Of a stretch of 41,852 nt of DNA, positions 2,114 through 29,847 are shown piece by piece; the first letter of the stretch is position 1, and each line of letters starts with the position of its first letter. The notes below the pieces were generated by a model. It was not told where the DNA came from and made no database searches. It saw only the letters and a program-made list of their open reading frames with translations. Source of the stretch: Spartobacteria bacterium (GTDB taxonomy: Bacteria > Verrucomicrobiota > Verrucomicrobiia > Chthoniobacterales > UBA10450). The stretch covers positions 1 through 41,852 of the forward strand of contig JAJPJU010000188.1 in the NCBI GenBank assembly GCA_021324035.1. The letters run 5' to 3'. Made by a program: the position numbers and the translations under genes.

Positions 2114-2120
2114 TCGTCAC

Positions 2121-3071: not shown

Positions 3072-3173
3072 GATCCTGATATTGGGAGGATAGCGCAATG
3101 GCAGCAATGACAACAATCATCATATTTCTGCCAACGCGCTTCAATCCCAACTACTATGAAAACGCGCCGAGGG

Positions 3174-5237
3174 TCAGGTTTTTGGGGCGAGTGACGCTAC
3201 GATTTTTTCGAAGCGCGGATCGCCGCGGAGCGAGTCCCAGTAAGGGAGCAGTTTAAGCTGACCGTAACTGATCGTGCCGGGGAGTTGAACCGCTTTGGCG
3301 AGCTTTTCGCAGGCCAAATCTTTGTCACCGACCCAGGCCGCGATCAGCGCATAATACTCAATCATATGCACACCGTTGATTGAATCTTTCGCAACTGGAA
3401 GAAGATCGATCGCGCGGCGGCCTTCCTGCAAGGCTTCCTGTTTTCGGCCAAGGCCGGCATCGATCAAACCCAAGACACAAATCGCCGGGGCCCAATCCGG
3501 TTGTTGCTGAAGAAGCTTTTGCTGTTTAGCGCGGGCAGCGCCGAAAGCCGCCTGCGCTTTGGTTTCGTCTTTGGTCATTCTAGCAATCAGACCCATCGCA
3601 ACGTCGTGATTGAGATAAACGGCGTCGTTACCAATATCGTTATCACCTAACGCAGACAAAGCGTGCTCGGCGGCGGCCGAATCGCGTTCCGACATCGCAC
3701 ATTGGAACCAGGTGTCGGCCACATTTTTCATCGCGTCGGAACTCAGGGACTGAAGCATTTGATGCAACGGCCGTGGATCCGCCTTCCACTCTAGGTCCAC
3801 TTGTGCGCGGGCCGCGCCGATTTCGACATCTCCCGGTTTAATGGACAATCCGCGGTCCAACGCTGCCGCCATTTCGGGATAGCGACGCAGATTTTGATAA
3901 CTGAGGGAGATTTGCTCGAGGATGAAAAAGTTTCGAGGATCGAGTTCGAGAGCCCGCTGAAGATTTTTGATGGCTTCGTCGTACTTGCCCTGGCGACGAA
4001 CTATGTAACCAATGAGTTCCGACACGCGCGAATCATTCGGCAGAGTTTTCCGCGCGATCTCTAACTCAGCGAGAGCTCCGTCGTAATCGAGGTAGCCACG
4101 GTAAAGATTTTCCGCGCGAGCGAGGCGCGCTTCGCCCGCATCTGGCCGCAATCGAAACGCAGATTGGATCGCGGCCTCAGCCAAAGCCAGCCGAGCTGGA
4201 GTATGATCGTTTCCGAGGAAGTAGAGATTGTCATTGGCATAAGCCAGCTGGCAGTAAGCTTCAAAAAAGGACGGGTCACGCGCAACCGCCTGGTTGAGAA
4301 GGTCGACCGCCTGAACATAGAGAGACTGGACATTTGCGTTCAGGGTAGTCGTTAAAAGAATATTTTTGGCGCGGGTAAAGAGATCAAACGCGGTCACATC
4401 GGAAGTCGGCTTCTGCTCGATTGCGCTCTTTTCGCTCGGCGAAAGTTTTGCCTGAAGTTGATCGGCAATCGCCTTTGCGATTTCACTTTGAATCGCAAAC
4501 ACATCCGCGATATCGCGATCAAAATTTTCCGCCCACTGGTGTGCATCAGTCCGGGCATCGATTAACTGGGCGTTCACCCGCACTTTGCCGCCAGCGCGTT
4601 GGACGCTGCCTTCGAGTAGATGCGCCACGCCAAGTTGCTGGCCAATCTCACGCAGATTGCGTTGTGCGCCGCTCTTGTATTGCATCACGCTGGTGCGGCT
4701 GATCACTTTCAGATCGGCAACTCTCGCCAAATCGGTCAGGATTTCATCCTGCACGCCATCGGTAAAAAAGGCGTTGTCTGGGTCGCGGCTGAGATTTTCG
4801 AATGGCAAAACCGCGATTGATTTCTCCGGTATCGACGACGCAGCAGTCATCGGAGTGGTCGAAGCGTCAGCTGTGCTGGAAGCTTTTGGACGCAACAACT
4901 GAAACGCCAGCAAGCCACTGGCTGTGATGCCGAGCACGACCGTAGTCCACATCAGTTTTCGTCCGGTACGATGGGTGATCGATTGGTTAAGGTCGACATC
5001 TTCGGCCCGCTTGATTCCTTCCGGCGTAATCTCGAAGGCCCAGGCCAGAAACAGCGCGATTGGAAAACCGAGAATCAAGAGCAGCACGACCAGACGGACC
5101 GCCCAGTTCGGAATCTCAAAAAACGGGAAGACCTGAGTCGCGACCTGAATCAGGAGCCAGGCCACGATCGCGTAGGCAACCGCGACCTTGTAGACATTGC
5201 GCCGTTTCAGCTCGGCGAAGAAATTACCCGTATTCAT
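3174..5237 (-). CDS. array member G8, subtype L: membrane-anchored TolB-N-like/TPR protein (687 aa)
   Basis: Contains MNTGNFFAELKRRNVYKVAVAYAIVAWLLIQ, AWAFEITPEGIKRAEDV, a third TM segment, SIAVLPFENLSRDPDNAFFTDGVQDEILTDLARVADLKVISRTS, a long TPR-like region and the tail YWDSLRGDPRFEKIV. Confidence 0.85.
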   Translation of the reverse strand: MNTGNFFAELKRRNVYKVAVAYAIVAWLLIQVATQVFPFFEIPNWAVRLVVLLLILGFPIALFLAWAFEITPEGIKRAEDVDLNQSITHRTGRKLMWTTVVLGITASGLLAFQLLRPKASSTADASTTPMTAASSIPEKSIAVLPFENLSRDPDNAFFTDGVQDEILTDLARVADLKVISRTSVMQYKSGAQRNLREIGQQLGVAHLLEGSVQRAGGKVRVNAQLIDARTDAHQWAENFDRDIADVFAIQSEIAKAIADQLQAKLSPSEKSAIEQKPTSDVTAFDLFTRAKNILLTTTLNANVQSLYVQAVDLLNQAVARDPSFFEAYCQLAYANDNLYFLGNDHTPARLALAEAAIQSAFRLRPDAGEARLARAENLYRGYLDYDGALAELEIARKTLPNDSRVSELIGYIVRRQGKYDEAIKNLQRALELDPRNFFILEQISLSYQNLRRYPEMAAALDRGLSIKPGDVEIGAARAQVDLEWKADPRPLHQMLQSLSSDAMKNVADTWFQCAMSERDSAAAEHALSALGDNDIGNDAVYLNHDVAMGLIARMTKDETKAQAAFGAARAKQQKLLQQQPDWAPAICVLGLIDAGLGRKQEALQEGRRAIDLLPVAKDSINGVHMIEYYALIAAWVGDKDLACEKLAKAVQLPGTISYGQLKLLPYWDSLRGDPRFEKIVASLAPKT

Positions 5238-5340
5238 TAGGACATATGGCCAACGGACTTTGCTTATAAATCCGTAAACCGCAAATAAAGTTCACGAACC
5301 CGGCGCTCCCAGTCGCGAGTTAATTGTTAGCCGTCAGCCG

Positions 5341-5409
5341 TTATTGATGGCGCAAACCTGATAAACCTTCCGCCGCTTCAGTCCGGCGAAGAAAGAACGC
5401 TTTTCTCAT
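5341..5409 (-). pseudogene. decayed 5-prime stump of a ninth array paralog
   Basis: ATG 5409-5407 overlaps the G7 stop (TGATG). The ATG frame reads MRKAFFLRRTEAAEGLSGLRHQ*. The +1 frame reads FFAGLKRRKVYQVCAI, compared with the family consensus FFAELKRRNVYKVAVAY. The rest of the gene is absent. Confidence 0.55.
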
Positions 5410-7139
5410 CACGGCGCCGGCATTCCGAGTTTGTCCCGCAACTTTTGATAACGTGGATCGCCACGAAAATTGTGGAGCAGGGGATCGACCAAGAGACTTA
5501 AGGTGCCGCCATCGCGCTGATCGAAAGAGGTTTGCAACCACTCGAAGACCTTGTCGGCTTCGCCCCGCACTGCATAAACCTCGGCGATCTGATATGCCAG
5601 TCGATCGTGGGCATGAGCGATCAAATCGGCCAGAGCCGCGTCCGCTTCTTTCCGGTTGCCCTGTACAAAATGCCCAAGCGCCAGCCCAAACCGTTTGAAA
5701 TTCTCGTCCGGCTCAAGATTCGCTTCGCGCAAAACGCCTTCGCCGTCATGTCGCTCCACCGCGACCAGGACTTGAAAGCGATGACTCGACGAAGCTGTCG
5801 GCTGCAACTCAGGCACTTTGCGCGCAGCCGCTTCTGCCTGATCGAGTTTCCCCGCGTTGAAAAGGACGCGAGAAAGATTGAAATACGCCGAAACCGACAA
5901 TGGATCTATCTCCACCGCATACCGTGCCTGGCGCTCGGCATCTTCGAATCGGCCTACGTAAACAATGACTCGCGCGAGCAAATCGTTTGCAGTCGGATTC
6001 GCCGGGGAAAGTTCTTTCGCGCGCTCAAGTTCCTTTAGACCTTCAGCAAACTTCCATTCGACGAAAAATCGGACCCAGCCGAGTGCGGCGTGCGCTTCGG
6101 CCAGCGCCGGCGCAATTGCGACAGCTTTCTCCGCATCACTGCGCGCTTTCGGATATGCAGTTGGCCGTTCGCCTGCGAGATCACCGACCAATGTCCACGC
6201 TTCCGCGCGTTCCGCGTAAGCCAATGCGTAATTGGGGTCGAGCCGCGTTGCCTCGTCGTAATAGGTGATGGCTTTGCGGTAGTCGTCAACGTTTCGCCGA
6301 AGCAATCGGAAATGCGCCTGGAGATAGGCGTTGTGCGCTTCCGCATTCGAAGGCGCGGCCACCTGCATCGAAGTCGCACTCGCGCCGAGCAACGTTACCT
6401 TCAAAGAACTCGCCACTGCGCTCGCGATTTCCTGTTGCAACGCGAAGATGTCCTTGAGCTCGCGGTCGAACGTTCGGGTCCAGAGCGTGATCCCGTCCGC
6501 CGAGTTCACCAATGCCGCCACGATCCGAACTCGATCGCCCTGTTTTCGGACTGTACCCTCGAGCAAAGTGTTCACTCCCAGCTTCTCGCCAATCACTTTC
6601 GGTTCTTCTTTTCGATCTTTGAAACGGAAGGACGAACTGCGACCAATTACTTTAAGCCCGCCAATTTGTCCAAGAGCCGCGATCAATTCCTCCGACAGGC
6701 CGTCAGAGAAATATTCGTCCTGCGGGTCGCCGCTTTCGTTGACCAATGGCAGGACCGCGATCGATTTTTTCGATACCATCCTTTGTCGAGGCGTGGCGCT
6801 GTATCGGCCGAGAAAAAACAAAGAGAGCGAGAGCGCGGCGCCGATGATGACGATGTAAATCCACGGTCCGTGGACCGAATGCGGCGTGGTCGGATCGACA
6901 TCTTCCGTTCGCTTCAATCCTTCAGGTGTGATTTCAAGGAACCAGGCACAGGCGAGAGCCACTGGAAACCCAACGATGATGACGAGAACTATGGATCTGA
7001 TCGCCCAGTTCGGAACATCGAAGACTGGGAAAACCTGGGCGATTCCCTGGGCAAGCGCCCAGCCGCCGACGAGGTAGGCGATAGCGACCTTATAAACGTT
7101 GCGCCGCTTCAGTTCAGAAAAGAAATTGCGATTACTCAT
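5409..7139 (-). CDS. array member G7, subtype M: membrane-anchored TolB-N-like/TPR protein (576 aa)
   Basis: ATG at 7139 gives MSNRNFFSELKRRNVYKVAIAY and overlaps the G6 stop (ATGA, 7136-7139). Contains SIAVLPLVNESGDPQDEYFSDGLSEELIAAL..LKVIGRSSS, TPR-like repeats and the tail DPLLHNFRGDPRYQKL. Very similar to G2. Confidence 0.85.
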   Translation of the reverse strand: MSNRNFFSELKRRNVYKVAIAYLVGGWALAQGIAQVFPVFDVPNWAIRSIVLVIIVGFPVALACAWFLEITPEGLKRTEDVDPTTPHSVHGPWIYIVIIGAALSLSLFFLGRYSATPRQRMVSKKSIAVLPLVNESGDPQDEYFSDGLSEELIAALGQIGGLKVIGRSSSFRFKDRKEEPKVIGEKLGVNTLLEGTVRKQGDRVRIVAALVNSADGITLWTRTFDRELKDIFALQQEIASAVASSLKVTLLGASATSMQVAAPSNAEAHNAYLQAHFRLLRRNVDDYRKAITYYDEATRLDPNYALAYAERAEAWTLVGDLAGERPTAYPKARSDAEKAVAIAPALAEAHAALGWVRFFVEWKFAEGLKELERAKELSPANPTANDLLARVIVYVGRFEDAERQARYAVEIDPLSVSAYFNLSRVLFNAGKLDQAEAAARKVPELQPTASSSHRFQVLVAVERHDGEGVLREANLEPDENFKRFGLALGHFVQGNRKEADAALADLIAHAHDRLAYQIAEVYAVRGEADKVFEWLQTSFDQRDGGTLSLLVDPLLHNFRGDPRYQKLRDKLGMPAP

Positions 7140-9164
7140 TTCAAGTTCTCTTCGCAGAGCCTTTGGAACCGCCGGTCGTTGCGGATCGGGTCCCACGCAG
7201 GATCGAGCTTCAGGTAAGCCGTGGTCAGAACCGTCACGCCGGGAGTTCGCAACACATTTTTGAGTATTGGAATCGCGCGATCAAAATCCCCGAGCGCGAC
7301 GTAGGCGCTAGCAACTTCCTCTTCAGTATTTGGAAACTGCCAGGCGTCGCTTCGGGTAGTTTCCAAAACCGAATCAGCCAGCGCCTGGGTTTCGTTTCGA
7401 TGCCCGAGATGGGCCTCCACCGCAAGCAGAGCCGAACGAAACAAAGGACTATTTTCTCCGGCGGCGCGCAGCTTGTTCAGTTTAGTTTCTGCTTGCAAAA
7501 AAAGCGCCCGGGCTCCGGCGCGATCACCTTTGGCCAGTCGAAGCTGACCCAGAAAAGAAGGAGCAATGGCCGAGAAAACTGGCGGGAGATTCTTCGCGCT
7601 CTTAACGTTTGAAACCATTCGTTCCGCGTCGTCGAAACGACGCTGAAAAACGAGGATTTCCACTTTCGTCGCGAATCCACGTTCCGTTGGATTAAATTGA
7701 ATGGGCTCCACAATCCTCCACGCCGTGTCCAAATCACCTTGCGCGACATACGTTTCCGCGAGGGCGGCTACGAGTTCGGAATCATCCGGCGCGATCGCAT
7801 GCGCGCGCTCGAACATGGTCCGGGCTTCTTCGAGACGGCGCAGACCGCGAAAGGCGCGACCAATATTTGCCCAGGTGTCTTCATTCAACGGATCGAGGCG
7901 GGCCGCTTCCTGTTGGAGGGAAATTGATTCTTCGATGTGCCCCTGTCGGCGTTTTACCAAACCCATTGCCGTCAAGATATGGGCATCATTCGGTGCACGC
8001 TCACGAGAGATTTGAAACTGAGTTAGCGCGGCATCGTAATCGCGGACGCAATAGTAATTAAATGCGCCCAGAGCGGCCGGCGCACCCGCGCTGTCCGGCG
8101 CCAGGCGTAATGCGTTGTCCGCCGCAGCCCGTGCCCGGGCGAGTTGGGCGTCGTTATGCTCCGGAAAAAAATATTTCTGCGATTCTCCGACCGTGAGCAA
8201 ACACCACGCGTCGGCGTAATTTGGATCAAGCTCCACTGCGCGCCTGGCAAACTTGATTAGTTCTTCCAAGTCGTCAGTGCCTTGCCGGTTCGACAAGGCC
8301 AGCGCGTGCAGAAAAGCATCGTAGGCTTCCACGTTGGCCGTTCCGCGAGCGGAAATTTGTTTCTTTTCCTGTCCGGTCAGCCTGGCCTCAAGTGATGCCG
8401 CGATTTTTTGGGCGAGATCGGTCTCAATCTGAAAGACATCGCTCAATTTGCGGTCGTAAGTTTCCGCCCACATGTGCGAATCGTTGAGCGCGTTGATCAA
8501 CTGCACGCTGATCCGGACCTGATCGCGCGCTTTTTGGACGCTGCCTTCGAGAATGTTGGCGACACCAAGCTGTTTCGCGATTTCTTTCAGATAAGCTGGC
8601 GCTCTTGAAGCGCTGAGTCGAGGTTCGCGAAATCACTTTCAATTCCGCGATCTTCGACAAGCGAGTCAGAATTTCCTCCTGAACTCCGTCGGCGAAATAA
8701 GCATTCGACTTGTCGTCGCTTAGGTTCTCGAATGGCAGAACGGCTATCGATTTCTGCGGAATTGCCGCCCCATACTCCTTGTCACGCCTCAGCTCATCGG
8801 ACGCGGACCGGGCCGTTCGCGCGCTATAACGCCCAAGCAAAAACAAGCCGATCGAAGCCGTGGCGCCAATCACCGCGACGTAAATCCAGACGTGTCCGCG
8901 CGAGCGTCGCTTTAGAGCATCCGCGACCATCGTGCGATCAATGCCGTGCGAGCTGGATTCAAACGCCCAGGCGATAACCAGCGCAATCACGAAGCCCACT
9001 AAAACCAGAACGACAACGGCACTGGTCAGGCCATCAGGAAGATGAAGCGCCGGAACAATCGTGGCCGTCACTTGAATGACTAACCACCCGACGACTGCGT
9101 AGGCGACGGCGACTTTATAGACGTTGCGCCGCTTCAGCTCGGCGAAAAAGTCCTGATAGTTCAC
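7136..9164 (-). pseudogene. array member G6, subtype L, split by a single-base frameshift near 8598-8602 (or an assembly error)
   Basis: ORF 8424..9164 reads correctly up to ...LKVISRTSTQRFKSA, then goes out of frame. The other frame continues PAYLKEIAKQLGVANILEGSVQKARDQVRISVQLINALNDSHMWAETYDRKL into ORF 7136..8506. One extra base in the gcgcc run would give FKSAPAYLKEI and a product of about 677 aa. Confidence 0.7.
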
Positions 9165-9188
9165 GACAATGGCCCCACCTGGCGGAAC

Positions 9189-10118
9189 TTACTCAACATT
9201 TCTGATCTTGACGATGCTACCCTTGGCTTGCTGGTCGTTAGGATCCTTTACCACGGTGACGTACAATTCCTTTTCGCCGGGGCCGAAGGCGACATTCGTT
9301 GTCCCGTTGCCTGCGGCAATTTCGAAAATGTGAAGAAGTGTTCCTTCAGGCGACAATTTCAAGACCTTACCGCCAAACCATTGGGCCACGTAAATGTTGC
9401 CTTTGTGATCAATCTTCATGCTGTCCGGTCCGAGCCAGGGAGAATCGTTCTTGTTTTTAATCAGAACATTGAGCAGAGCAAAATTGGATCGATGACTTAA
9501 GGATCCATTGGCCTCGATCGCAAATTTCAGCATGCAATTGCTGACCGTCTGGCTGACATAAAGGGTCTTTCCGTCCGGCGAAACGCCGACGCCGTTGGCG
9601 TAATTGAGATCCTTCGCCACCTCGACCCATTTTTCAGCGCCGGGTGCGAGATAAAGAATTTTCCCGATCACCGACGTCGGCACTGGTGGATCGCCATACG
9701 GGCCGAACACTGTTGCGTAAGCGCCACCGTTCGGAGCAACGACGATATCATTGATTCCTCCGACAAATTTGTTGCCGTTGTTGTCGGTGTCCCAGCGGCG
9801 CAGTTGTTTACCGTTGAGGTCCAGTTCAAGAATCGCGCCAGGATCGTTGGTGCAGGCGAGCAGGAAAGTTTTCTGTTTAGTGAGCGCCAAGCCGTTGTGG
9901 CCGCAGCCGTCGGTGTGGTTCAACACCATGGTGGTTTTGCCGTCGCACTTCGACAACGTGTTTGAAACCCACCCAACGTAATAAAGGTTACCGTCAATGA
10001 ACAACGGGCCTTCCGGTCCAAGGACATTGCTGACGACAATACTTTCGTCCGCGCCCGCCGCCGTGGCACTCCACAAGATTGCCCCAACAGCGATGGAGAT
10101 AATGTTACTCATCCTCAT
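9189..10118 (-). CDS. secreted SMP-30/gluconolactonase/LRE-like six-bladed beta-propeller protein
   Basis: Signal-like N-terminus MRMSNIISIAVGAILWSATAAG. Blade motifs: PEGPLFIDGNLYYV, NGLALT, INDIVVAPNGGAY, ANGVGVSPDGKTLYVSQT, PDSMKIDHKGNIYVAQWFGGKVLKLSPEG, TNVAFGPGEKELYVT. The stop lies 24 nt upstream of the G6 start. Confidence 0.8.
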   Translation of the reverse strand: MRMSNIISIAVGAILWSATAAGADESIVVSNVLGPEGPLFIDGNLYYVGWVSNTLSKCDGKTTMVLNHTDGCGHNGLALTKQKTFLLACTNDPGAILELDLNGKQLRRWDTDNNGNKFVGGINDIVVAPNGGAYATVFGPYGDPPVPTSVIGKILYLAPGAEKWVEVAKDLNYANGVGVSPDGKTLYVSQTVSNCMLKFAIEANGSLSHRSNFALLNVLIKNKNDSPWLGPDSMKIDHKGNIYVAQWFGGKVLKLSPEGTLLHIFEIAAGNGTTNVAFGPGEKELYVTVVKDPNDQQAKGSIVKIRNVE

Positions 10119-10254
10119 TTTGATTCCTTTCCTCGTGACCAGCGTTGACTCAACAAATCTAGATCGCGGCGTCGTCCTTGGATACGAGAAACCCGTCTCC
10201 CTGGCGCAGCCGAATCGTATTGACGCCTAGCCGTATTTCTGCCGGAATTCCTCG

Positions 10255-10722
10255 ATGATAAAAACTCGAATTACAGCAGTAACTCTTGCCCTCTCGATGA
10301 TGGGCGCGGTCAGTTGTTTTGCGGCTAACGCGCACATTGGGACTTGGAAAACCAATGAGGCGAAATCGAAGCAAGCGCCGGGCATGGGCAAGACGAACAC
10401 CGTCACCTATGCCGAGAAGAAAGATCAGTTGCAAGTGACGGTGGACGGCGCGGATAAGGACGGCAAACCGACTCACGGAGTTTGGATGGGTACGACCGAC
10501 GGCAAAGCCTATAAAGTAAAGGGCAACCTTTCCTGGGACGCGATGGCCTACAAAATGGTGGACGACCACACCTATGACATTACTGCGATGAAGAATGGAA
10601 AAGTGGCTTGGACCGGCCGAACCACCGTCTCGAAGGATGGCAAAACACGCACGCTCAATATGAGCGGTACTGGCGCGGACGGAAAGAAATTCAAAGCCAA
10701 GAACGTTTACGACAGAGCGTAG
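10255..10722 (+). CDS. small secreted beta-rich protein, possibly lipocalin-like
   Basis: Signal peptide MIKTRITAVTLALSMMGAVSCFA. A GTWKTNEAKSK start and alternating K/T/G-rich strands resemble lipocalin-like domain proteins, but that assignment is tentative. It is the only plus-strand gene inside the array region. Confidence 0.55.
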   Translation: MIKTRITAVTLALSMMGAVSCFAANAHIGTWKTNEAKSKQAPGMGKTNTVTYAEKKDQLQVTVDGADKDGKPTHGVWMGTTDGKAYKVKGNLSWDAMAYKMVDDHTYDITAMKNGKVAWTGRTTVSKDGKTRTLNMSGTGADGKKFKAKNVYDRA

Positions 10723-10756
10723 AATAGAACTCGGCCGTTAAATAGTGCCGATCAAT

Positions 10757-10793
10757 GTAAAGATCGACAATCCAAGCGATTGTCGATCTTTAC
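10757..10793. terminator. bidirectional stem-loop between convergent genes
   Basis: The sequence gtaaagatcgacaatc-caagc-gattgtcgatctttac forms a perfect 16-bp stem with a 5-nt loop, followed by tattttc on the plus strand. The right arm overlaps the TAG of G5 (10793-10795). Confidence 0.6.
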
Positions 10794-12439: not shown

Positions 12440-12448
12440 TGAATTCGG

Positions 12449-13021
12449 TTAGGAGCTGAGCGTGTAGAAGACAAAAAACCAAAGGTTCTGAACAAACATA
12501 CCGCCGACACCAACCCATTGTAGCCAGCGCGGCCGTCCCCACCCGGCCAGTACCGCAAAAATGGCGAGCGATAATCCCACCAGCTCTGCCCCGACCCAGT
12601 CGTTAGGCTTTTGCCATCCGATGGCGTCGCGATCGGCATAGATTGCAAGGTTTCCCATCACGGAAAGGGCAATAGTGGCGGAGAAAATAATCCGGCGCTG
12701 GCGGTCAAAGAAAGCCGGCATATCGACCAGCCCGCTCTCGCTGATTGGCATGGCGACGAGTGAGCAGCTAAAATAATTGGGAATCACCCAGCCGAGTTGA
12801 AGCAAGACCTCGCCCAGCGTCCAGTGCTTGATGTTCTGGAGTTCCCAAAGACCTAACCAGTTGATAATCACTCCGAGCGCAGCGTTGAGCATCGACACCG
12901 AAAGCAGCCAGGACAAGCGCACGCGATCGCGAGCCAGTAGCAATTGCGACGCGCTCGAGAAGACATGGGTCAGCGCAATGGCGAAAATAAACGAGACCAG
13001 AACGGTTACGTGCTGAAACAT
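12449..13021 (-). CDS. hypothetical multi-pass membrane protein embedded in the array
   Basis: 190-aa ORF with an ATG start and about 5-6 hydrophobic segments (e.g. VTVLVSFIFAIALTHVF, LLSVSMLNAALGVIINWLGLW, LVGLSLAIFAVLAGW). It lies 56 nt after G4 and 9 nt before G5. No family recognised. Confidence 0.65.
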   Translation of the reverse strand: MFQHVTVLVSFIFAIALTHVFSSASQLLLARDRVRLSWLLSVSMLNAALGVIINWLGLWELQNIKHWTLGEVLLQLGWVIPNYFSCSLVAMPISESGLVDMPAFFDRQRRIIFSATIALSVMGNLAIYADRDAIGWQKPNDWVGAELVGLSLAIFAVLAGWGRPRWLQWVGVGGMFVQNLWFFVFYTLSS

Positions 13022-13077
13022 AATTTCCGGTCACCGCCCTGACTCAATTCCCGCTGCCGAAAGGTTGCCGATCTTCA

Positions 13078-14844
13078 CTATTGTGTTTTGGGCGCGATTA
13101 CCTTCTGCACCAATGCTTCAAAGCGCGGGTCGCCGCGGAGCGGATCGAGCAGGGGATCGACTTTGATCGTCCCGATATCGTCGCCGTCTGCCTCGGCATA
13201 ACTTTGTTCCAGCGCGGAAAGCGCCTGATCTTTCTGGCCGAGGCTTATATATAGAAGTGCGCGGTAATACGCTTCGACGTACTGATGTTTCGCGAGTTCT
13301 TCGAGTGCAGCGAGAGCCTGAACCGCTTCCTCACGCCGACCCATTATTGCCCCGAGCTGAGCTCGCAGCGCAATCGCTTGCGCATCATTTTCGCGAGCGC
13401 GCGCGACTGAGTACTCAGCCCGCGCTCCTTCGAGGTCACCGCTGACTTGGAGCAAGATGCCGTTGATCCAGTGCGCATAAGCGAAGGCTGGGTCAACCTC
13501 GAGTGCTCTTTTCATTACCGCACCAGCTTCTTTGAAACGACGCGCGTACATGTAGGTATCGGCGAGGTCCACCAAGTTTACGACGGAGAGCGGATCAAGT
13601 TCGGTCGAGCGCTCACCATCGGCGATGGCTTCGTTGAAACGGTCGAGACCGGAGAGCGGCCCGTTGCTTACCCAGTGATACGCACTGGCCAGGTTTGGGC
13701 TCAGCTCGATCGCACGCTGATGCTCGCGAACTGCCCGTTGCAGGTCGACGTCAACGGTGTACGCAATCTTTCCCATCGCATTGTGCGCCTCCGCCAGGTT
13801 CGGGTTCAACTCCAGCGCCTTAACAGTCGCGGCCCTAGCTTTCGAACGGGCATCCTTCGGATCGGCGCCGAGATAATAGGGAAGCAAAATATAGGTTTCA
13901 CCCAAGCCCGCGTAGGCGAGCGCATAGTTCGGGTCGCGGGCAATCGCCTGATTGTAGAACTCGATCGCCCGCGGCAAACTGTCGCCACGCAATCCCCAGA
14001 AGTGGCGCCCTTTCAAATACAGCTCGTGTGCGACAACATCCTCCGTCGGCGCACTGGTCATTGCATTCTTTTCCGAACCGGTCAGCTTCGCCTGCAATGT
14101 GTCGGCAATTGTTTTAGCGATGTCGCTCTCGACAGCGAAAATGTCCGTGAGCTTCCGATCATAAATCTCCGCCCACAGATGCGAGTTCGTCATCGCATTG
14201 ATCAACTGCACATTGACCCGAACCTGATCGTTTACCTTTTGGACGCTGCCTTCGAGAATGTTCATCGCACCGAGCTGCTTGGCGATGTCGGGTAAATTTT
14301 CCGGCGCGCTTTTGAATTTCTGCGTCGAAGTGCGCGCGATCACTTTCAGATCAGCAACCTTGGCCAGGCGCGTCAGGATTTCATCTTGGACTCCTTCGGC
14401 GAAAAATGCGTTATCGGGATCGCGGCTGAGATTATCGAATGGTAAAACCGCGATCGACTTCGCCGGCAATTGGCTGGAAACCTCGCCCGAAGTACTTCGC
14501 CCCATGTTTTTCCCTATGAAAAATAAGGCAACCGAAGTGGCGGCGCCAATCGCGGCGACATAGATCCATGTCTTTCCGTGGCCGTGCTTGTGTGTCGCAT
14601 CGGCAACTTCTGTCCGCTTAATTCCTTCTGGAGTGGCTTCAAACGCCCACGCGATCACGAGCGCAATCGGAAATCCGATCGCAATCAAAACGATGACCAG
14701 CCGCACTACCCAGTTAGGGATTTCCAGGAACGGAAAAATCTGAGTCGCGACTTGGGCGATGACCCACCCAACGACGGCATACGCGACCGCAACTTTGTAA
14801 ACATTGCGTCGCTTCAGCTCGGCGAAGAAGTTATCGATCTTCAC
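13078..14844 (-). CDS. array member G4, subtype S (588 aa)
   Basis: The GTG start overlaps the G3 stop (TAGTG, 14842-14846). Contains MKIDNFFAELKRRNVYKVAVAY, AWAFEATPEGIKRTE, SIAVLPFDNLSRDPDNAFFAEGVQDEILTRLAKVADLKVIARTS, a TPR region and the tail DPLLDPLRGDPRFEALVQKV. Confidence 0.85.
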   Translation of the reverse strand: MKIDNFFAELKRRNVYKVAVAYAVVGWVIAQVATQIFPFLEIPNWVVRLVIVLIAIGFPIALVIAWAFEATPEGIKRTEVADATHKHGHGKTWIYVAAIGAATSVALFFIGKNMGRSTSGEVSSQLPAKSIAVLPFDNLSRDPDNAFFAEGVQDEILTRLAKVADLKVIARTSTQKFKSAPENLPDIAKQLGAMNILEGSVQKVNDQVRVNVQLINAMTNSHLWAEIYDRKLTDIFAVESDIAKTIADTLQAKLTGSEKNAMTSAPTEDVVAHELYLKGRHFWGLRGDSLPRAIEFYNQAIARDPNYALAYAGLGETYILLPYYLGADPKDARSKARAATVKALELNPNLAEAHNAMGKIAYTVDVDLQRAVREHQRAIELSPNLASAYHWVSNGPLSGLDRFNEAIADGERSTELDPLSVVNLVDLADTYMYARRFKEAGAVMKRALEVDPAFAYAHWINGILLQVSGDLEGARAEYSVARARENDAQAIALRAQLGAIMGRREEAVQALAALEELAKHQYVEAYYRALLYISLGQKDQALSALEQSYAEADGDDIGTIKVDPLLDPLRGDPRFEALVQKVIAPKTQ

Positions 14845-16607
14845 TATTGTGTTTTCGGCGCAACGATTTTTTGCGCGAGCGCTTCGAACCGCGGATCTCC
14901 GCGGAGATCATCGAGCCGCGGATCGTATTTGATGAGAAAGAGCTCGGAAGCGTGTTGGAAGAAGCCTTCCTCCAAATCGTCCATCGCATGTTTCTTTTCT
15001 CCTAGCCCTAGATGAACGATTGCCACCAAGTAGTCCGAAACATACTGCGAACGCGTTTTCTCGAGGAGACGCGAAAGGATTTGCTGAGCTTCTTCGCGCT
15101 GTCCACCGCGGCCGAGGGCCTGACCCAGTTGCGCGAGGATAGTTAAGTCATCGCCCGACCCAGCAGCTTTACGATATTCGGTGATTGCTTCCGGCAATCG
15201 ACCTTTGAACTCCAAAGCTTCAGCTAAAGAAGCACGAGCGACAGGAAAGCCGGGCTCGATCTCCAGAGTCTTTCGGCTCTGAGCCATCGCCTCATCGAAA
15301 CGGTGGGCATCTAGATAAGTAGACGCAAGGTTGTAATTAATGATCAATGAAAGAGGATCCAGCTCTATGGCCCGTTTTGCCTCGGCAATTGCGCGGTCAA
15401 ACTCGCCGATCATTTGCAAAGGCCTGTTTAGCCACTGGTGCGCGGTTGCGTAATTTGGGTTCAACTGAATTGCCCGCTCCAATTCCGCAACCGATTTGGC
15501 GGCATCGAAATCGTAACTAGCATAGGCCAATCCAAGAGCGGCGTGCGGTTCGGCCAGCGCGTTATCTAAACTCAACGCTTTCGTCGCCGCCGCCTTCACT
15601 TGCGGCACCGAGTTCTCTGGTGAAGATACGCCGTAATCCGCAAAAAGGACATAGGTCTCCGCCAACCCAGCATAGGCCAGAGCGTAGTTTGGATCTTTTG
15701 CGATCGCCTGATTGTAATAATCGGCGGCCTTCAACATGTCAGCCGGGGTCCGCTTGTTCCAAAAGAATCTACCCTTGAGATAAAGCTCGTACGCTTCTGG
15801 ATTCGTGGTCGGTTTTTTCGATATCGCAGTTTTTTCCGAGCCACTCAATTTTGCCTGCAAAGTGTCGGCGATCGTTTTCGCGATGTCGCTCTCGACCGCA
15901 AAAATGTCGGTCAGCTTGCGATCATAAATTTCGGCCCAAAGATGCGAATTCGTCATCGCATTTATCAACTGCACATTGACTCGGACTTGATCATTCGCTT
16001 TTTGGACGCTGCCTTCGAGAATGTTCATCGCACCGAGCTGCTTGGCGATATCGGGTAAATTTTCCGGCGCGCTTTTGAATTTCTGCGTCGAAGTGCGAGC
16101 GATGACTTTTAAGTCAGCAACCTTGGCCAGCCGCGTCAGAATTTCGTCCTGAACTCCTTCGGCGAAGAATGCGTTATCGGGATCGCGACTGAGATTATCG
16201 AACGGCAATACTGCAATTGATTTCGCCGGCAATTCGGTACGAGGCGCACTGGCATTATTCCCGGCCGTGTAACGGCCGAAAAAGAATAAGGCCACCGAGA
16301 TCGCTGCGCCGATGACAGCGACATAGATCCAGGTCTTCCCACGTGAGTGCTCCTGCTTGGCATCGGCAACTTCCGTTCGTTTGATCCCTTCGGGCGTCGC
16401 TTCGAAAGCCCATGCGATCACGAGGGCGATTAGAAATCCAATTGCGATCAATATGATCACCAAGCGCACAACCCAGTTCGGAATTTCCAGGAATGGAAAT
16501 ATTTGTGTCGCGATTTGAGCGATTAACCAGCCGACAACTGCATACGCGACCGCAACTTTGTAGACGTTGCGCCGCTTCAGCTCGGCGAAGAAATTGCGCT
16601 CGCTCAT
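14844..16607 (-). CDS. array member G3, subtype S (587 aa)
   Basis: ATG at 16607 overlaps the G2 stop (ATGA, 16604-16607). Starts MSERNFFAELKRRNVYKVAVAY. Residues 126-259 match G4 at 132 of 134 positions. The TPR half resembles G5. Tail: DPRLDDLRGDPRFEALAQKI. Confidence 0.85.
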   Translation of the reverse strand: MSERNFFAELKRRNVYKVAVAYAVVGWLIAQIATQIFPFLEIPNWVVRLVIILIAIGFLIALVIAWAFEATPEGIKRTEVADAKQEHSRGKTWIYVAVIGAAISVALFFFGRYTAGNNASAPRTELPAKSIAVLPFDNLSRDPDNAFFAEGVQDEILTRLAKVADLKVIARTSTQKFKSAPENLPDIAKQLGAMNILEGSVQKANDQVRVNVQLINAMTNSHLWAEIYDRKLTDIFAVESDIAKTIADTLQAKLSGSEKTAISKKPTTNPEAYELYLKGRFFWNKRTPADMLKAADYYNQAIAKDPNYALAYAGLAETYVLFADYGVSSPENSVPQVKAAATKALSLDNALAEPHAALGLAYASYDFDAAKSVAELERAIQLNPNYATAHQWLNRPLQMIGEFDRAIAEAKRAIELDPLSLIINYNLASTYLDAHRFDEAMAQSRKTLEIEPGFPVARASLAEALEFKGRLPEAITEYRKAAGSGDDLTILAQLGQALGRGGQREEAQQILSRLLEKTRSQYVSDYLVAIVHLGLGEKKHAMDDLEEGFFQHASELFLIKYDPRLDDLRGDPRFEALAQKIVAPKTQ

Positions 16608-18352
16608 TGCGGCGGAAAATTCATTCTTATGATGAACGCTTTGTAGCGGGGATCGTCCCGCAAGTTTTTCAACAACGGATCAACCAGCAGCCCCAGCATT
16701 CCACTGTCGTGATGATCATGTGCGATTTGCAACCACTCGAACGCTTTGTCTTTCTCGCTGCGGACCGCGTAAACTTCGACGATTTGATAGTCCAGTCCGC
16801 GATTGTTGGCGATGAGGTCGGCCAACGCCGCATCTGCCGCCTTTCGAACTCCGCGCGCATAGTGCGCAAGCGCGAGTTCGAAGCGGCGATAGCTCTCGTC
16901 GGGCTCCAACTGCGCCTCGCGCAACGCGGTCTCGCCGTCGCCGCGCTGAACGGCGACAAGGACCTGAAATCGACGACTCGAAGCACCACTCGGTTGCAAC
17001 TCTGCCGCTTTGCGCGCCACCGACTCCGTTTCATCAAGCTTTCCCAGATACAAAAGAACGCGGGCGAGATTGAGCTGTGCGGAAAAGGAAAGGGGATCGA
17101 GATTCACTGCCTGCCGAGCCTGCTTCTCGGCCTCATCGGGTCTGCCAACGTAAACAATGCACCGACCGAGCAGATCGTTCGCGGTCGGATTTGTTGGAGA
17201 CAATTCCTTGGCGCGTTTTAGCTCGGTCAGCCCCTCGGCAAATTTCCATTCCGTAAAAAAACGCGCCCAACCAAGAGCCGCGTGTGCCTCGGCCAGCCCA
17301 GGGGCAATTGCGACCGCTTTCTCCGCATCGCTCTGCGCTTTCGGCCAAGCGCTCTTGCCTTCGCCCGTGAGGTCTCCGATCAGGGTCCACGCTTCGGAAC
17401 GCTCCGCATAAGCAACCGCATAGTCTGGATCAAGACGGACCGCTTCATCGTAGTGGCCAACCGCCGTGCGATAATCTTCGAGATTTCGTCGAAGAAAATG
17501 GTAGTGGCCGAGGAGATAGGCGTCGTGCGCTTCGGTGTTTTTTGTGGCCACGCTCGTAGCTGAGCGTTCATCCGCTCCAAGCAATCTCACTTTTAGCGCC
17601 GACGCGACCGCTGTGGCGATTTCCTGCTGCACGGCGAAGATGTCCTTTAGCTCGCGATCGAATGTCCGGGTCCAAAGCTCGATTCCGTCCGCGGCGTTAA
17701 TCAGCTCCGCGACAATTCGAACCCGGTCGCCCTGTTTGCGCACCGTGCCCTCGAGTAAAGTCGCGACGCCGAGTTTCTCGCCGATCGCCTTGGGCTCCTC
17801 CTTTCTTTCCTTAAAACGAAATGAAGAACTGCGGCCGATGACTTTCAGTTCTCTGATCTGGGCCAGAGCAGCGATCAATTCCTCAGAAAGCCCATCGGAG
17901 AAATATTCGTCCTTGGGATCACCGCTTTCATTCAAGAGCGGCAACACCGCGATAGACTTGTTGCTCGCGCTGGACGTGGCGGTCGATCCTGGCGCGCGAG
18001 AGAATTGGTAGGCGAATAAGGCGGCGGCTGTGATCGCGATACCGATGATGAAGGCGGCGAATTTCTTTCTGCTCCAATATGGCAAGGCGTGGGCTTCGTC
18101 GGCCGAGACGTCCGCCGTTCGTTTCATTCCTTCAGGAGTCATCTCGAATGCCCACGAGATGCACACAGCCAGGACAAATCCGAGGGCCAGCAAGACGACC
18201 AGCGTTTTCATGACCCAGCCCGGCGCATCGAAAGTGGGCAGGAGAATCGAAGCTGCCTGAATCAACAGCCACGACACCACCAGATATGCGACTGCAACCT
18301 TGTAAACGTTGCGCCGTTTCAGTTCGGAAAAGAACGAAGGTTTCTCGCTCAT
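16604..18352 (-). CDS. array member G2, subtype M (582 aa from ATG 18352; the track starts one codon earlier at GTG 18355)
   Basis: Starts MSEKPSFFSELKRRNVYKVAVAY. The ATG overlaps the G1 stop (TGATG, 18350-18354). Contains SIAVLPLLNESGDPKDEYFSDGLSEELIAAL..LKVIGRSSS and the tail DPLLKNLRDDPRYKAF. Very similar to G7. Confidence 0.85.
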   Translation of the reverse strand: MSEKPSFFSELKRRNVYKVAVAYLVVSWLLIQAASILLPTFDAPGWVMKTLVVLLALGFVLAVCISWAFEMTPEGMKRTADVSADEAHALPYWSRKKFAAFIIGIAITAAALFAYQFSRAPGSTATSSASNKSIAVLPLLNESGDPKDEYFSDGLSEELIAALAQIRELKVIGRSSSFRFKERKEEPKAIGEKLGVATLLEGTVRKQGDRVRIVAELINAADGIELWTRTFDRELKDIFAVQQEIATAVASALKVRLLGADERSATSVATKNTEAHDAYLLGHYHFLRRNLEDYRTAVGHYDEAVRLDPDYAVAYAERSEAWTLIGDLTGEGKSAWPKAQSDAEKAVAIAPGLAEAHAALGWARFFTEWKFAEGLTELKRAKELSPTNPTANDLLGRCIVYVGRPDEAEKQARQAVNLDPLSFSAQLNLARVLLYLGKLDETESVARKAAELQPSGASSRRFQVLVAVQRGDGETALREAQLEPDESYRRFELALAHYARGVRKAADAALADLIANNRGLDYQIVEVYAVRSEKDKAFEWLQIAHDHHDSGMLGLLVDPLLKNLRDDPRYKAFIIRMNFPPQ

Positions 18353-20403
18353 CACTTCGCCATACCGTTTTCAGTAATGAGTTTTTGAAAACGCGGGTCT
18401 TTGCGCAGCGGGTCCCAGAGCGGATTGAATTTCAAATCGGCGACAGTCACTCCCGCAGGGACTTCGAGAAGATGGGGCAGGGCAGCAATCGCGGCATCGC
18501 GTTCGCCGAAATGCGCCTGGATCTGAGCGAGCGCGATCTCGGCCTGCGGTTTGGAGACCGCGTCGGTTTCGTACGCTTTGACGGTACTCTGCGCCTGTTG
18601 CAGCGCCTTCTCCTTTTCGCCTAGTCCGGCATAGGCAAACGCCAGAGTAGCAGCCGTGCCATTCGCATCGAGGACCACAGTCGATTGCGGCGTTGGCAAG
18701 ATTTCGTGGATCGCCCGCTCAAAAGTACGGCGCGCCTCATCCTTTTGGCCTGACCACTCCTGAAATTGCCCGAGCTCAACCAGAAACGATTTCTGGAACG
18801 AATCGAGCGCTTGACCGGGAGGAATCGAGCTGAGTTTTCGTTGGGCGACTTTGATTCCTTCATCAAAGTTACGTTCATAAGTTGCCTGAACCAGGCGCGC
18901 GCCGATGATCCAGTCATCAGTCAGGTCGGGCGGAACGTGCGCCAACTCATGATTGGCTTCCTCGAGGCGTCCCGCAGCCTGCAGCAGGCCCGCCTTGCCA
19001 GCATGGCCGACCTCGTCATCGGGCGCAAGTTGCAAAGACCGGTCGATGATGGCGAGAGCCTCGTCGAATCGTCTCAAGTAGGCATAGAACTCGCCCGCCA
19101 TTGAGTTCAGCAATTGAATGTCGCGTGGATCCAGTTCGAGTGCTCTTTTGTAATTTGCTTCCGCTTCGTTCCATTGGCCGAGGCGCCGTTGCACAAACGC
19201 GAGATATTGGTGGACCAATGCGCTGTTCGGCAGCCGTTTTTGCGCTTCCTGATATGCCGCCACTGCACCTTGGAAATCGCGCAATACCCGATAGCGATAA
19301 GACCCCTGCGCGATCCACGATTCGCCCGCTTCGGGTGCGAGGGTCATTGCATGATCGGCCGCTTCCTTCACCGCAGCGGCGCTGTTTGTGGTGAGATCGA
19401 TCGAGTTGAAATAAAGAAAGCTGCGGATGATCGACAAACGCGCCCAGGCCAGCGCGAAATTCGGATCGAGCTGGACCGCGTAGGCGTAAACGCGCTCCGC
19501 CTGACCGTAGGCCTCGTAGTTGTAGCTGTTGTGTTCAATTGCCAGCGCGCGGAGATAGGCATCGTAGGCCGCGGCATTCTGGGTCGGTTTACTGGCCACC
19601 GCTTTTTGTTCGGCGCCGGTAAGCTTGGCGTTGAGTTGATCGGCGATGGAGCTGGCGACTTCGCCTTCGACCCCGAAAACATCATCCAGTTTTCGATTGT
19701 AACTTTCGGCCCAGACATGTTCGTCGGTCGCCGCTTTGATTAGCTGAACGTTAACGTGAACGGCGTTGGCGATTTTTTGCACGCTGCCTTCGAGAACGTG
19801 GGCGACACCAAGTTGCTTACCGATATCGCGCAAATTGTCCGGCGCGCTTTTGTACTTCTGGGTCGAGGTCCGCGAAATGACCTTGAGCGCGGCGATCTTT
19901 GACAGGCGGGTCAGGATCTCGTCCTGGATGCCTTCAGCGAAATACGCATTCGATTTATCGTCACTCAGATTATCAAAAGGAAGAACAGCAATACTCTTTT
20001 CCGGAATCGGTCCGGAATTTTCGCTGGCGGTGCTTTGCGGTGCGGTCGGAGATCTTTTCGGTCCCAAAAATTGATACGCCAACAGCCCAGCCGAAATCAC
20101 CGCCAGGACGATGGTCAAAGCGATAATTTTTCGTCCGGTGCGGGGGGTAATCGACTTGTCAGACTCGATCTCGGATTCGCGTTTGATTCCTTGCGGAGTG
20201 ATCTCGAACGCCCAGGACAAAACCAGCGCGATCGGAAAACCGATGATCAGAATGACTACGACCAGACGAACCGCCCAGTTTGGAATTTCAAAAAACGGAA
20301 AAACCTGCGTTGCTATTTGAATGAGCAACCATGAAGCGACGGCGTAAGCGACCGCAACTTTGTAGACATTGCGACGCTTCAGTTCGGCAAAAAATCTGCT
20401 CAT
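18352..20403 (-). CDS. array member G1, subtype L (683 aa from ATG 20403)
   Basis: ATG at 20403 gives MSRFFAELKRRNVYKVAVAY, matching the other paralog starts. The track ORF extends to a TTG at 20469. Contains SIAVLPFDNLSDDKSNAYFAEGIQDEILTRLSKIAALKVISRTS, a long TPR region and the tail NPLWDPLRKDPRFQKL. Confidence 0.8.
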   Translation of the reverse strand: MSRFFAELKRRNVYKVAVAYAVASWLLIQIATQVFPFFEIPNWAVRLVVVILIIGFPIALVLSWAFEITPQGIKRESEIESDKSITPRTGRKIIALTIVLAVISAGLLAYQFLGPKRSPTAPQSTASENSGPIPEKSIAVLPFDNLSDDKSNAYFAEGIQDEILTRLSKIAALKVISRTSTQKYKSAPDNLRDIGKQLGVAHVLEGSVQKIANAVHVNVQLIKAATDEHVWAESYNRKLDDVFGVEGEVASSIADQLNAKLTGAEQKAVASKPTQNAAAYDAYLRALAIEHNSYNYEAYGQAERVYAYAVQLDPNFALAWARLSIIRSFLYFNSIDLTTNSAAAVKEAADHAMTLAPEAGESWIAQGSYRYRVLRDFQGAVAAYQEAQKRLPNSALVHQYLAFVQRRLGQWNEAEANYKRALELDPRDIQLLNSMAGEFYAYLRRFDEALAIIDRSLQLAPDDEVGHAGKAGLLQAAGRLEEANHELAHVPPDLTDDWIIGARLVQATYERNFDEGIKVAQRKLSSIPPGQALDSFQKSFLVELGQFQEWSGQKDEARRTFERAIHEILPTPQSTVVLDANGTAATLAFAYAGLGEKEKALQQAQSTVKAYETDAVSKPQAEIALAQIQAHFGERDAAIAALPHLLEVPAGVTVADLKFNPLWDPLRKDPRFQKLITENGMAK

Positions 20404-27197: not shown

Positions 27198-27212
27198 GTG
27201 AGGATATCGTTC

Positions 27213-29750: not shown

Positions 29751-29847
29751 CTAATCGCCGTTTACAACGGCTGAAGCTGTCATTAACACCGCGCCGGTGA
29801 AACGCGCTCTCCCCAGCGCGTTCAATCGAGGGCGAAGGTCGATCCAC

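Follow-up and report, generated by a model that had tools for sequence, protein, structure and literature searches.

A tandem array of TolB-like/TPR membrane proteins from a soil Chthoniobacterales genome: predicted CadC-like ectodomains behind an unmodeled three-helix head

Why would a soil bacterium carry eight related genes for membrane proteins, none with a recognizable output domain, in one tandem array? The question is raised by a 41,852-nucleotide stretch of DNA (positions 1 to 41,852 of contig JAJPJU010000188.1, assembly GCA_021324035.1, Spartobacteria bacterium; here referred to as "the window"), in which eight minus-strand paralogs, G1 to G8, lie within positions 3174 to 20403. Each joins an N-terminal membrane module (the "N-module") to an alpha/beta unit, a tetratricopeptide repeat (TPR) region, and a C-terminal cap, the last three of which we call the ectodomain. 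The host of the array is a soil Verrucomicrobium of the Candidatus (Ca.) Udaeobacter/Chthoniobacterales lineage, and the locus is one chromosomal site of a very large multigene family of these bacteria. We favor, with a probability of about 60%, the reading that these genes form a birth-and-death family whose products are separate periplasmic receptors and not an obligate complex of the three subtypes (L, M, and S) into which the proteins had been sorted. The structural and evolutionary part of that reading we hold with high confidence; the functional part, which is argued from fold homology and domain context, could go either way.

Ca. Udaeobacter is described as ubiquitous and dominant in soils, with an unusually small genome and many auxotrophies (bioRxiv 10.1101/053942; PMC7343977). 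For Ca. Udaeobacter copiosus, a genome of only 2.81 Mbp is reported, along with many amino acid auxotrophies and with peptide transport and proteases enriched (bioRxiv 10.1101/053942). At this one locus, the 17-kb array takes up ~0.6% of a 2.8-Mb genome; further arrays lie elsewhere. The paralog family is not mentioned in the two main Udaeobacter genome papers (bioRxiv 10.1101/053942; PMC7343977), and full-text literature searches returned no description of the family, of COG5616-type proteins, or of TPR/cyclase expansions in Udaeobacter. What is new here is an unmodeled head with three transmembrane helices on a periplasmic sensor family of the CadC-like/TolB-like-TPR kind, encoded in coupled tandem arrays.

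Layout of the array

Open reading frame (ORF) listing and translation bore out the eight minus-strand genes placed here by a first-pass annotation, made by a model from the letters of the sequence, and their summed length of 14.8 kb. Six are intact and two are damaged, and two short remnants accompany them:

G1, 18352..20403, minus strand: intact L-type, 683 amino acids (aa), with N-module, TolB-N-like alpha/beta unit, long TPR region, and TPR end cap
G2, 16604..18352, minus strand: intact M-type, 582 aa; its ATG shares 1 base with the G1 stop (TGATG)
G3, 14844..16607, minus strand: intact S-type, 587 aa; ATGA overlap with G2
G4, 13078..14844, minus strand: intact S-type, 588 aa; GTG start and G3 stop have 1 base in common; forms a mosaic with G3
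Remnant of another stop/start junction of the G3/G4 type, 13045..13080, minus strand: directly 3' of the G4 stop
G5, 10793..12439, minus strand: damaged S-type, 548 aa; in-frame loss in the alpha/beta module and N-module substitutions
G6, 7136..9164, minus strand: L-type, frameshifted at ~8595-8603; ORFs 8424-9164 and 7136-8506
G7, 5409..7139, minus strand: intact M-type, 576 aa; ATGA overlap with G6
Stump, 5341..5412, minus strand: frameshifted N-module gene start (…EKRSFFAGLKRRKVYQV…), probably not a family TPR gene; overlaps the G7 stop
G8, 3174..5237, minus strand: intact L-type, 687 aa; 171 nt from G7

Stop and start codons share bases at all four direct paralog junctions of the window, with the sequences and positions first annotated. 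A single nucleotide is shared in G1/G2 (TGATG, 18350-18354) and G3/G4 (TAGTG, 14842-14846), and G2/G3 (16604-16607) and G6/G7 (7136-7139) have 4-nt ATGA overlaps; all of these junctions were checked on the minus strand. A 79-nt DNA repeat spanning the N-terminal motif occurs in exactly eight copies in the window. As a single unit, the array was overdrawn: G1 to G4 are fused head to tail, followed by a gene for a 190-aa protein, G5, a hairpin, and two genes from outside the family, and the second part then runs from G6-G7 through the stump to G8, which follows after 171 nt. The stop/start overlaps lie within G1-G4 and within G6-G7, and the array is broken by three non-family genes (12449-13021, 10255-10722 on the plus strand, and 9189-10118).

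The proposed subtypes are uneven groups. Judged by pairwise protein identity in the multiple alignment, the M group (G2/G7, 65%) and the S group (G3/G4, G3/G5, and G4/G5, 55 to 64%) are tight, and the L group (G1/G6/G8) is loose, at only 35 to 44%, and is united mostly by a common insertion of ~100 aa. Paralog pairs outside the M and S groups are 29 to 44% identical.

For comparison we used 80 related genome loci, labeled Lnnn; a scan for the N-terminal motif took one genome per species, and its best 78 loci were fetched. Custom hidden Markov models, built from the window paralogs for N-module, alpha/beta unit, and C-terminal cap, were run on all ORFs of the 80 loci.

A three-helix head on a sensor-like ectodomain

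The multiple alignment of the eight paralogs opens with the shared motif FFxELKRRNVYKVAVAY, followed by two hydrophobic helices that close in WAFExTPEGIKR (WAFExTPEGxKR for the intact products) and by a third hydrophobic helix. The alpha/beta unit (SIAVLPF...LKVIxRTS) comes next, then a variable TPR part, and then a C-terminal DPxxDxLRxDPRF motif. The first-pass annotation had described each of these elements, and all stand except that the alpha/beta module, shared in the family alignment, lacks its SIAVLPF...FAE half in G5. Conserved N-module positions include F6, E9-Y16, W27, Q31, P38, P43, W45, G57, W66, E69, T71, and G74, and the T71-P72 pair after helix 2 is invariant or nearly so in 57 sequences. 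The sole predicted cytoplasmic parts are the N-terminal FFxELKRRNVYKV and the WAFExTPEGxKR after helix 2, both of which are nearly invariant.

No Pfam or NCBIfam model covers residues 1 to 120 of the eight paralogs. A profile of the N-module nevertheless reached 18,773 cluster representatives at an E value of ≤1e-3 and 12,476 at ≤1e-10 among 1.84 billion proteins; it is a very large unmodeled membrane domain family that merits a profile and a name. The top 150 representatives were mostly short fragments and added no new domain partners. Among plasmids of cultured bacteria, the N-module (residues 1 to 125) had no match, and the full protein was matched there only via its ectodomain.

Pfam returned only TPR families for G1 to G8, plus sub-threshold TolB_N and FlgO in G8; all eight proteins match several TPR families (TPR_1, TPR_2, TPR_11, TPR_17, TPR_19, and others) above the cut-off. 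The C-terminal motif is already modeled as NF047558, "TPR end-of-group" (~56 residues; cut-off, 32 bits), a structural cap that brings no functional information. All eight C termini matched it, six above the cut-off (G1, 39.1 bits; G3, 44.8; G4, 46.8; G5, 39.2; G7, 35.8; G8, 53.9) and two below (G2, 31.8; G6, 29.0).

Matches to the alpha/beta unit are fainter. For TolB_N (PF04052) only G8 was listed, at 19.7 bits (E value, 9e-4), below the gathering score of 22.4 bits that marks membership; in a relative, the cyclase of L019, the score rises to 27.9 bits. The TolB model TIGR02800 aligned over positions ~23 to 156 of 418 only, with 26 to 30 bits against a cut-off of 343 and an E value of 3e-7 for the N-terminal region of G8. 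Weak, far sub-threshold NCBIfam matches of the alpha/beta and TPR region were to CadC, HilA, the N-terminal part of TolB, and TIGR04510. The JGI name for homologs of G3 is "TolB-like protein/Tfp pilus assembly protein PilF," and this name and the weak TolB_N and TolB matches agree with the TolB-N-like unit of the first-pass annotation. TolB_N homology of the window proteins is plausible on these sub-threshold profile scores. The likeness to TolB (PF04052/COG5616) is limited to the small alpha/beta unit and to weak profile similarity; the window proteins have no beta-propeller, and the window contains neither tol nor pal genes.

Searches of Pfam and NCBIfam found no cyclase (PF00211), Pkinase, or winged-helix domain in G1 to G8. 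The statement that the proteins have no output domain was therefore right as regards catalytic and DNA-binding domains, but it overlooked the highly conserved N-module, a possible transducing element.

An AlphaFold2 model of G3 built from 57 sequences (predicted local distance difference test score, 86; predicted template modeling score, 0.75) starts with a short N-terminal helix and two long ones, passes through a disordered linker into a third long helix, and continues with a beta-alpha unit that contains a meander of three strands and then with a helical solenoid that runs unbroken from about residue 270 to 582. When this model was compared with the Protein Data Bank (PDB) by Foldseek, the only compact match was the periplasmic sensor domain of CadC (3LY7/3LY8/3LY9; probability, 1.00), with a target TM-score of 0.67 to 0.68 and a root mean square deviation of 4.5 to 4.7 Å over ~307 columns. 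Other fold matches were mostly generic TPR solenoids with poor TM-scores. As modeled, the ectodomain is a TolB-N-like alpha/beta unit packed on TPR helices in a CadC-like fold.

The ToxR-like one-component regulator CadC of Escherichia coli (PDB 3LY7) is likewise an inner-membrane-tethered protein whose extracytoplasmic domain sets an N-terminal alpha/beta subdomain on a helical subdomain resembling TPRs. CadC differs in having a cytoplasmic winged-helix domain and one transmembrane helix, where the window proteins have the three-helix module and no DNA-binding domain; moreover, the TPR part of the window proteins is much longer and ends in the end-of-group cap. Against the CadC sequence model, the window proteins score at most 35.5 bits (cut-off, 400), and only the transmembrane-plus-periplasmic part aligns. 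They thus share the periplasmic CadC fold but fall outside the CadC/ToxR family, because the defining winged-helix domain is absent. The periplasmic domain of CadC works as an input domain.

In relatives, the same alpha/beta-TPR-cap ectodomain stands behind a class III cyclase domain (proteins of ~700 to 840 aa) and behind a Ser/Thr kinase head (L059:3553-6387, 944 aa), in both cases with exactly one hydrophobic helix between head and ectodomain. Outside the phylum it recurs at 33 to 39% identity in cyclase proteins of Rhizobium and Sinorhizobium (for G3, 33 to 39% identity to the rhizobial cyclase TPR proteins), in a winged-helix protein of Granulicella, in Ralstonia, and in Gemmatirosa. The linkage of the unit and its TPRs to cyclase, kinase, and winged-helix heads, which the first reading had stated for proteins elsewhere, is seen in relatives. 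The G1 ectodomain is 60% identical to that of the cyclase receptor L036:191-2584 (593 columns) and 58% identical to that of L012:3135-5627 (569 columns), closer than to any paralog in the window (≤44%). Judging from such alignments, heads are exchanged on a shared ectodomain. The ectodomains of the receptor cyclases and kinases are homologous to those of the window proteins end to end, end cap included, and their genes share arrays with the family in relatives; the difference is that their catalytic head and single transmembrane helix are replaced by the three-helix N-module in the window proteins. For TIGR04510 cyclases, only the TolB-like/TPR part aligns, at 43 to 50 bits against a cut-off of 400. 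The closest known system is the CadC sensor domain in fold and the TolB-like-plus-TPR receptor cyclases and kinases in sequence.

These relatives also bear on orientation. Because their cyclase and kinase domains are cytoplasmic and exactly one hydrophobic helix precedes the ectodomain, their ectodomain must be periplasmic. An N-module with three helices would therefore hold the window ectodomains on the same side, in agreement with the periplasm-facing arrangement first proposed.

The N-module, in turn, occurs without this ectodomain. In relatives it is fused to a Xaa-Pro-dipeptidase-like amidohydrolase in proteins of ~770 aa (L026:11770-14082, L053:15822-18134, L065:4957-7263, L068:11761-14082, and L035:2525-4879). 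The fusion gene is ATGA-coupled to the preceding family gene in L026, L053, L065, and L068, unlike in L035, and in L053 and L068 that preceding gene resembles G7. Truncated copies of the fusion in L020, L043, L044, L071, and L076 fit the same order. With these fusions, the N-module amounts to a transferable head or anchor that can carry various periplasmic domains.

Recurrence, selection, and turnover

A homolog search with G3 at a threshold of E ≤1e-10 gave at least 8000 homologs; among the matches listed, the best came from soil metagenomes and the named ones belonged to Chthoniobacterales or Verrucomicrobiota. The N-terminal motif was confirmed at no fewer than 565 genome loci, and the best 78 of these are almost all from metagenome-assembled genomes (MAGs) of Ca. 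Udaeobacter, Chthoniobacterales, or "Spartobacteria." Most of the 80 related loci contain two to eight genes with N-module, alpha/beta unit, and cap arrayed on one strand, and arrays are also seen in long-read MAG contigs as long as 2.5 Mb. Fragments and split genes are present at many of the loci, for example, L018, L026, L027, L061, and L074. Stop/start overlap is a trait of the family and not of this window alone: counted after start-codon refinement, 112 of 183 paralog junctions in the related loci (61%) overlap by 4 nt, 73 of them as ATGA and 38 as GTGA.

Two observations on the wider distribution stand apart. Four contigs binned as Nitrospirota (L011), Rhizobacter (L028), Acidobacteriaceae (L029), and Alphaproteobacteria (L034) encode N-modules 74 to 89% identical to those of the window; L011, L029, and L034 carry Udaeobacter-like runs of two to five family genes, and L028 holds fragments only. 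These contigs reflect either mis-binning or recent transfer. In addition, L038:4196-7909 and P0127 (1283 aa) each combine two family members in one ORF, with the order N-module, alpha/beta unit, N-module, alpha/beta unit, cap, a fusion that most likely arose when an overlapping junction lost its stop codon.

Intact paralogs have orthologs at 61 to 83% identity. Those of G7 (66 to 71%) occur in L053, L068, L071, L043, L044, L020, and L076, and that of G4 in L044 is 81% identical. Nonsynonymous (dN) and synonymous (dS) divergence is reported where synonymous sites are not saturated:

G2 versus L052: dN 0.11, dS 1.35
G4 versus L044: dN 0.11, dS 1.14
G4, TPR part alone: dN 0.09, dS 0.83

The alpha/beta unit is the most conserved part in every ortholog comparison. 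By these measures, the intact paralogs are under purifying selection. A streamlined genome that retains arrays under such selection implies that the proteins must give the cell something important.

Copies have also been remodeled and lost. DNA identity between G3 and G4 is 74 to 94% across the first ~750 nt and 36 to 55% in the TPR half, a mosaic that points to gene conversion or recombination in a conserved 5' half beside a divergent ligand-side half. G6, which had been annotated as one gene, is split by the frameshift at ~8595-8603. Joining both frames yields a full-length member that aligns end to end with the family, and the frameshift could be a sequencing error because the window is a metagenome contig. 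In G5, the missing first half of the alpha/beta module amounts to 48 alignment columns relative to the window paralogs and to 38 to 40 residues relative to its closest relatives, in L026 (68% identity) and L019 (65%), both of which keep the segment; the lesion is therefore specific to the genome of the window. G5 is also substituted at the otherwise invariant N-module residues N14 and K17. ORFs of ~551 aa recur in relatives, and we considered whether the short form of G5 is a conserved variant; this was rejected, as the nearest relatives are intact over the deleted segment.

Both remnants lie directly behind intact genes. Local alignment to the G3/G4 junction identifies ~30 nt of a junction of that type after G4, and a direct repeat (D14, 13064-13167 versus 14830-14933) supports it. 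The stump after G7 had been taken for a ninth copy. An N-module start is indeed present at ~5341-5412, but it is out of frame with its own ATG. It aligned best to the junction between the G7 ortholog and the amidohydrolase gene in L068, with scores only modestly above those to G2 or G3. Given this alignment and the gene order in relatives, the "ninth copy" is most simply a lost amidohydrolase gene, and the stump is probably a relic of an N-module-amidohydrolase fusion; the same two lines of evidence disfavor a ninth TPR paralog. Old paralogs under selection, together with remnants, a frameshift, a deletion, and varying content, form the pattern of a birth-and-death multigene family.

Separate receptors or something else?

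In the reading that we favor, the ectodomain would be a sensory or ligand-binding input, and each paralog would act as its own periplasmic receptor or binder, with the TPR surface setting specificity. The N-module would anchor the protein and probably relay binding, in the membrane or via its cytoplasmic motifs, to a cytoplasmic or membrane partner; a relay is suggested because the conservation of the module far exceeds the need of a plain anchor. Arrays would grow and shrink by unequal crossing-over between the conserved 5' halves, so that a stop/start junction would be copied together with its gene, and gene conversion would keep the 5' halves alike, as in G3/G4. The overlaps would yield co-transcription and coupled translation of neighbors without defining a fixed complex.

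Several points weigh against this account. Its functional part draws only on fold homology and domain context, and the three-helix topology is itself a prediction. PDB sequence-profile searches with the full-length protein and with the alpha/beta unit plus first TPR retrieved only generic or designed TPR proteins and not CadC, so that the link to CadC is one of fold and weak profile similarity only. The N-module could be a mere anchor, and the amidohydrolase fusion fits an anchor as well as a transducer. Finally, a 4-nt overlap is found in only 1 of 10 non-family same-strand gene pairs of the window, and the difference between this and the 61% of family junctions could mean that stoichiometric co-production matters.

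A broader proposal that builds on the receptor reading is tentative and, in our view, less likely than not. The three-helix N-module would be the unrecognized signaling head of a large receptor class (>12,000 clusters), and the heads (N-module, cyclase, kinase, and N-module-anchored hydrolase) might form a combinatorial network for sensing or capturing soil-derived ligands such as peptides. If so, a streamlined genome of ~2.8 Mb invests several coupled arrays in a receptor repertoire. The family is experimentally tractable, with an ectodomain of known sensor fold, and because heads are interchangeable, a natural cyclase-headed homolog of G1 could serve as a cyclic AMP (cAMP) reporter for finding ligands.

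Among the alternatives, the one that fares best, although we think it unlikely, makes the N-module proteins co-receptors or decoys that pair with receptor cyclases and Ser/Thr kinases of the same subtype and tune cAMP or phosphorylation signaling, or has them phosphorylated by the kinases at the invariant Thr-Pro after helix 2. In the arrays of relatives, N-type genes are intermixed with cyclase-type and kinase-type genes, in many cases joined by ATGA overlaps; the ectodomain of G1 is as close as 58 to 60% to those of cyclase receptors; and T71-P72 is nearly invariant across the 57 sequences. Class III cyclases act as dimers, so a dimerizing ectodomain is plausible. The array of the window, however, has no cyclase or kinase member, N-type genes far outnumber both other types in the related loci, and strong conservation of the whole N-module is not something that a decoy requires.

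It is improbable, in our estimation, that the proteins are tethered periplasmic binders with TPR ectodomains that catch peptides or unfolded proteins to be processed or taken up, and that they act together with periplasmic hydrolases anchored by an N-module, to the benefit of an amino-acid-auxotrophic oligotroph. TPRs typically bind peptide segments. The complete cases of an ATGA-coupled amidohydrolase fusion number at least four (L026, L053, L065, and L068), five truncated cases agree with them, and the window keeps the relic of such a gene start after G7. Peptide capture would also suit the auxotrophies and peptide-use enrichment reported for Ca. Udaeobacter copiosus (bioRxiv 10.1101/053942). 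Yet the amidohydrolase gene has been lost in the window while G7 is intact, no transporter genes are linked to the arrays, and the occurrence of this ectodomain behind cyclase, kinase, and winged-helix heads points to signaling over support of catalysis.

In the model that goes back to the first-pass annotation, coupled translation would yield neighboring L, M, and S proteins in set proportions, and these would join in a single hetero-oligomeric scaffold or capture machine in the periplasm. TPR proteins often serve as scaffolds, and the overlaps speak for this model, being present at each of the four direct paralog junctions of the window and at 61% of those in relatives. We regard it as quite improbable. 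Adjacent subtype pairs in the related loci occur in all orders (SS 24, LS 12, SL 12, LL 11, SM 6, MS 6, LM 5, MM 4, and ML 2), and there are arrays of a single subtype, with five L-like genes in a row in L033 and five S-like genes in a row in L036. Loci that share the flanks of the window (L006, L052, and L016) differ in array composition. In L006, the flavin adenine dinucleotide (FAD) monooxygenase flank is followed by a 75% identical G1 ortholog and then by one gene each of the M-like, cyclase, and S-like types; in L052, the same flank leads directly to an 82% identical G2 ortholog; and in L008, L010, and L016, an SMP-30-like gene lies between differing paralogs. The annotation had itself named a lack of conserved L-M-S order in relatives as evidence against its proposal, and that is what the relatives show. 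Frameshifted and deleted copies are tolerated within the array, the block is broken by unrelated genes and a terminator-like hairpin, and an overlap can pass passively with the duplication unit, as the remnant junctions after G4 and G7 illustrate.

A nonfunctional expansion, whether a decaying selfish repeat or an assembly artifact, is very improbable: two of the eight copies are damaged (the G6 frameshift perhaps by sequencing error), with two remnants here and many fragments in relatives, but each intact copy has orthologs at 61 to 83% identity with dN much below dS, arrays recur in long-read MAG contigs up to 2.5 Mb, and the paralogs, at 29 to 65% identity, are much too dissimilar to stem from duplication during assembly. 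A conflict-system reading was dropped since PADLOC gave no defense-system match; it returned only a generic TPR model for G8 (E value, 7e-4) and nothing for G1, G2, G3, or the three interspersed genes.

The features that interrupt the array are as follows:

12449..13021, minus strand: 190-aa multi-pass membrane protein, 9 nt upstream of G5; a recurrent array passenger
10757..10793, no strand assigned: perfect hairpin of 16 bp that adjoins the G5 stop, in the gap between two convergent genes, G5 and 10255-10722
10255..10722, plus strand: 155-aa protein without a family assignment whose start resembles a signal peptide; small secreted-protein gene, convergent to G5
9189..10118, minus strand: SMP-30/gluconolactonase-like (SGL-like) beta-propeller protein; non-family gene interrupting the array

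The 190-aa protein (12449-13021) has four hydrophobic segments and no Pfam, NCBIfam, or PADLOC match, and it may be a membrane partner of the paralog family. Copies 75 to 89% identical, likewise 9 nt upstream of a paralog, are found in L001, L002, and L069, and weaker copies (~35% identity) in L011, L026, L044, and L071. Homologs of the 155-aa gene lie inside or beside arrays in L012, L035, L040, L041, L060, L067, L069, and L071, as do those of the SGL-like gene in L008, L010, L016, and L033.

The hairpin at 10757-10793, an inverted repeat of 16 bp with a 5-nt loop, is likely to be a bidirectional terminator that closes the G1-G5 block. One of its arms resembles the G3/G4 junction sequence (TGAAGATCGATAAC). 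A scan of the window for sigma-70 promoters and terminators gave counts at or below the shuffled expectation and is uninformative for a Verrucomicrobium, the hairpin after G5 excepted. Rfam gave no RNA family match anywhere in the window, and upstream of G1 it detected neither a riboswitch nor a leader.

The remaining window is ordinary chromosome, with LptF/G, Nramp, CNNM, glycosyltransferase, MMPL, LolA-like, and flavin monooxygenase genes. Its GC content of ~55% agrees with the 54% of Ca. Udaeobacter copiosus (bioRxiv 10.1101/053942). At 1028-3116 on the minus strand are two adjoining DJ-1/PfpI-domain genes, one with a fused AraC-type helix-turn-helix and the other with a signal-like segment at its N terminus and a YHS (metal-binding) domain at its C terminus. 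Genes for a LolA-like protein, an MMPL/RND-type transporter, a 150-aa ORF, and a tryptophan-halogenase-like flavoprotein are co-directional at 26538-31253 (minus strand), the last pair with a 4-nt overlap.

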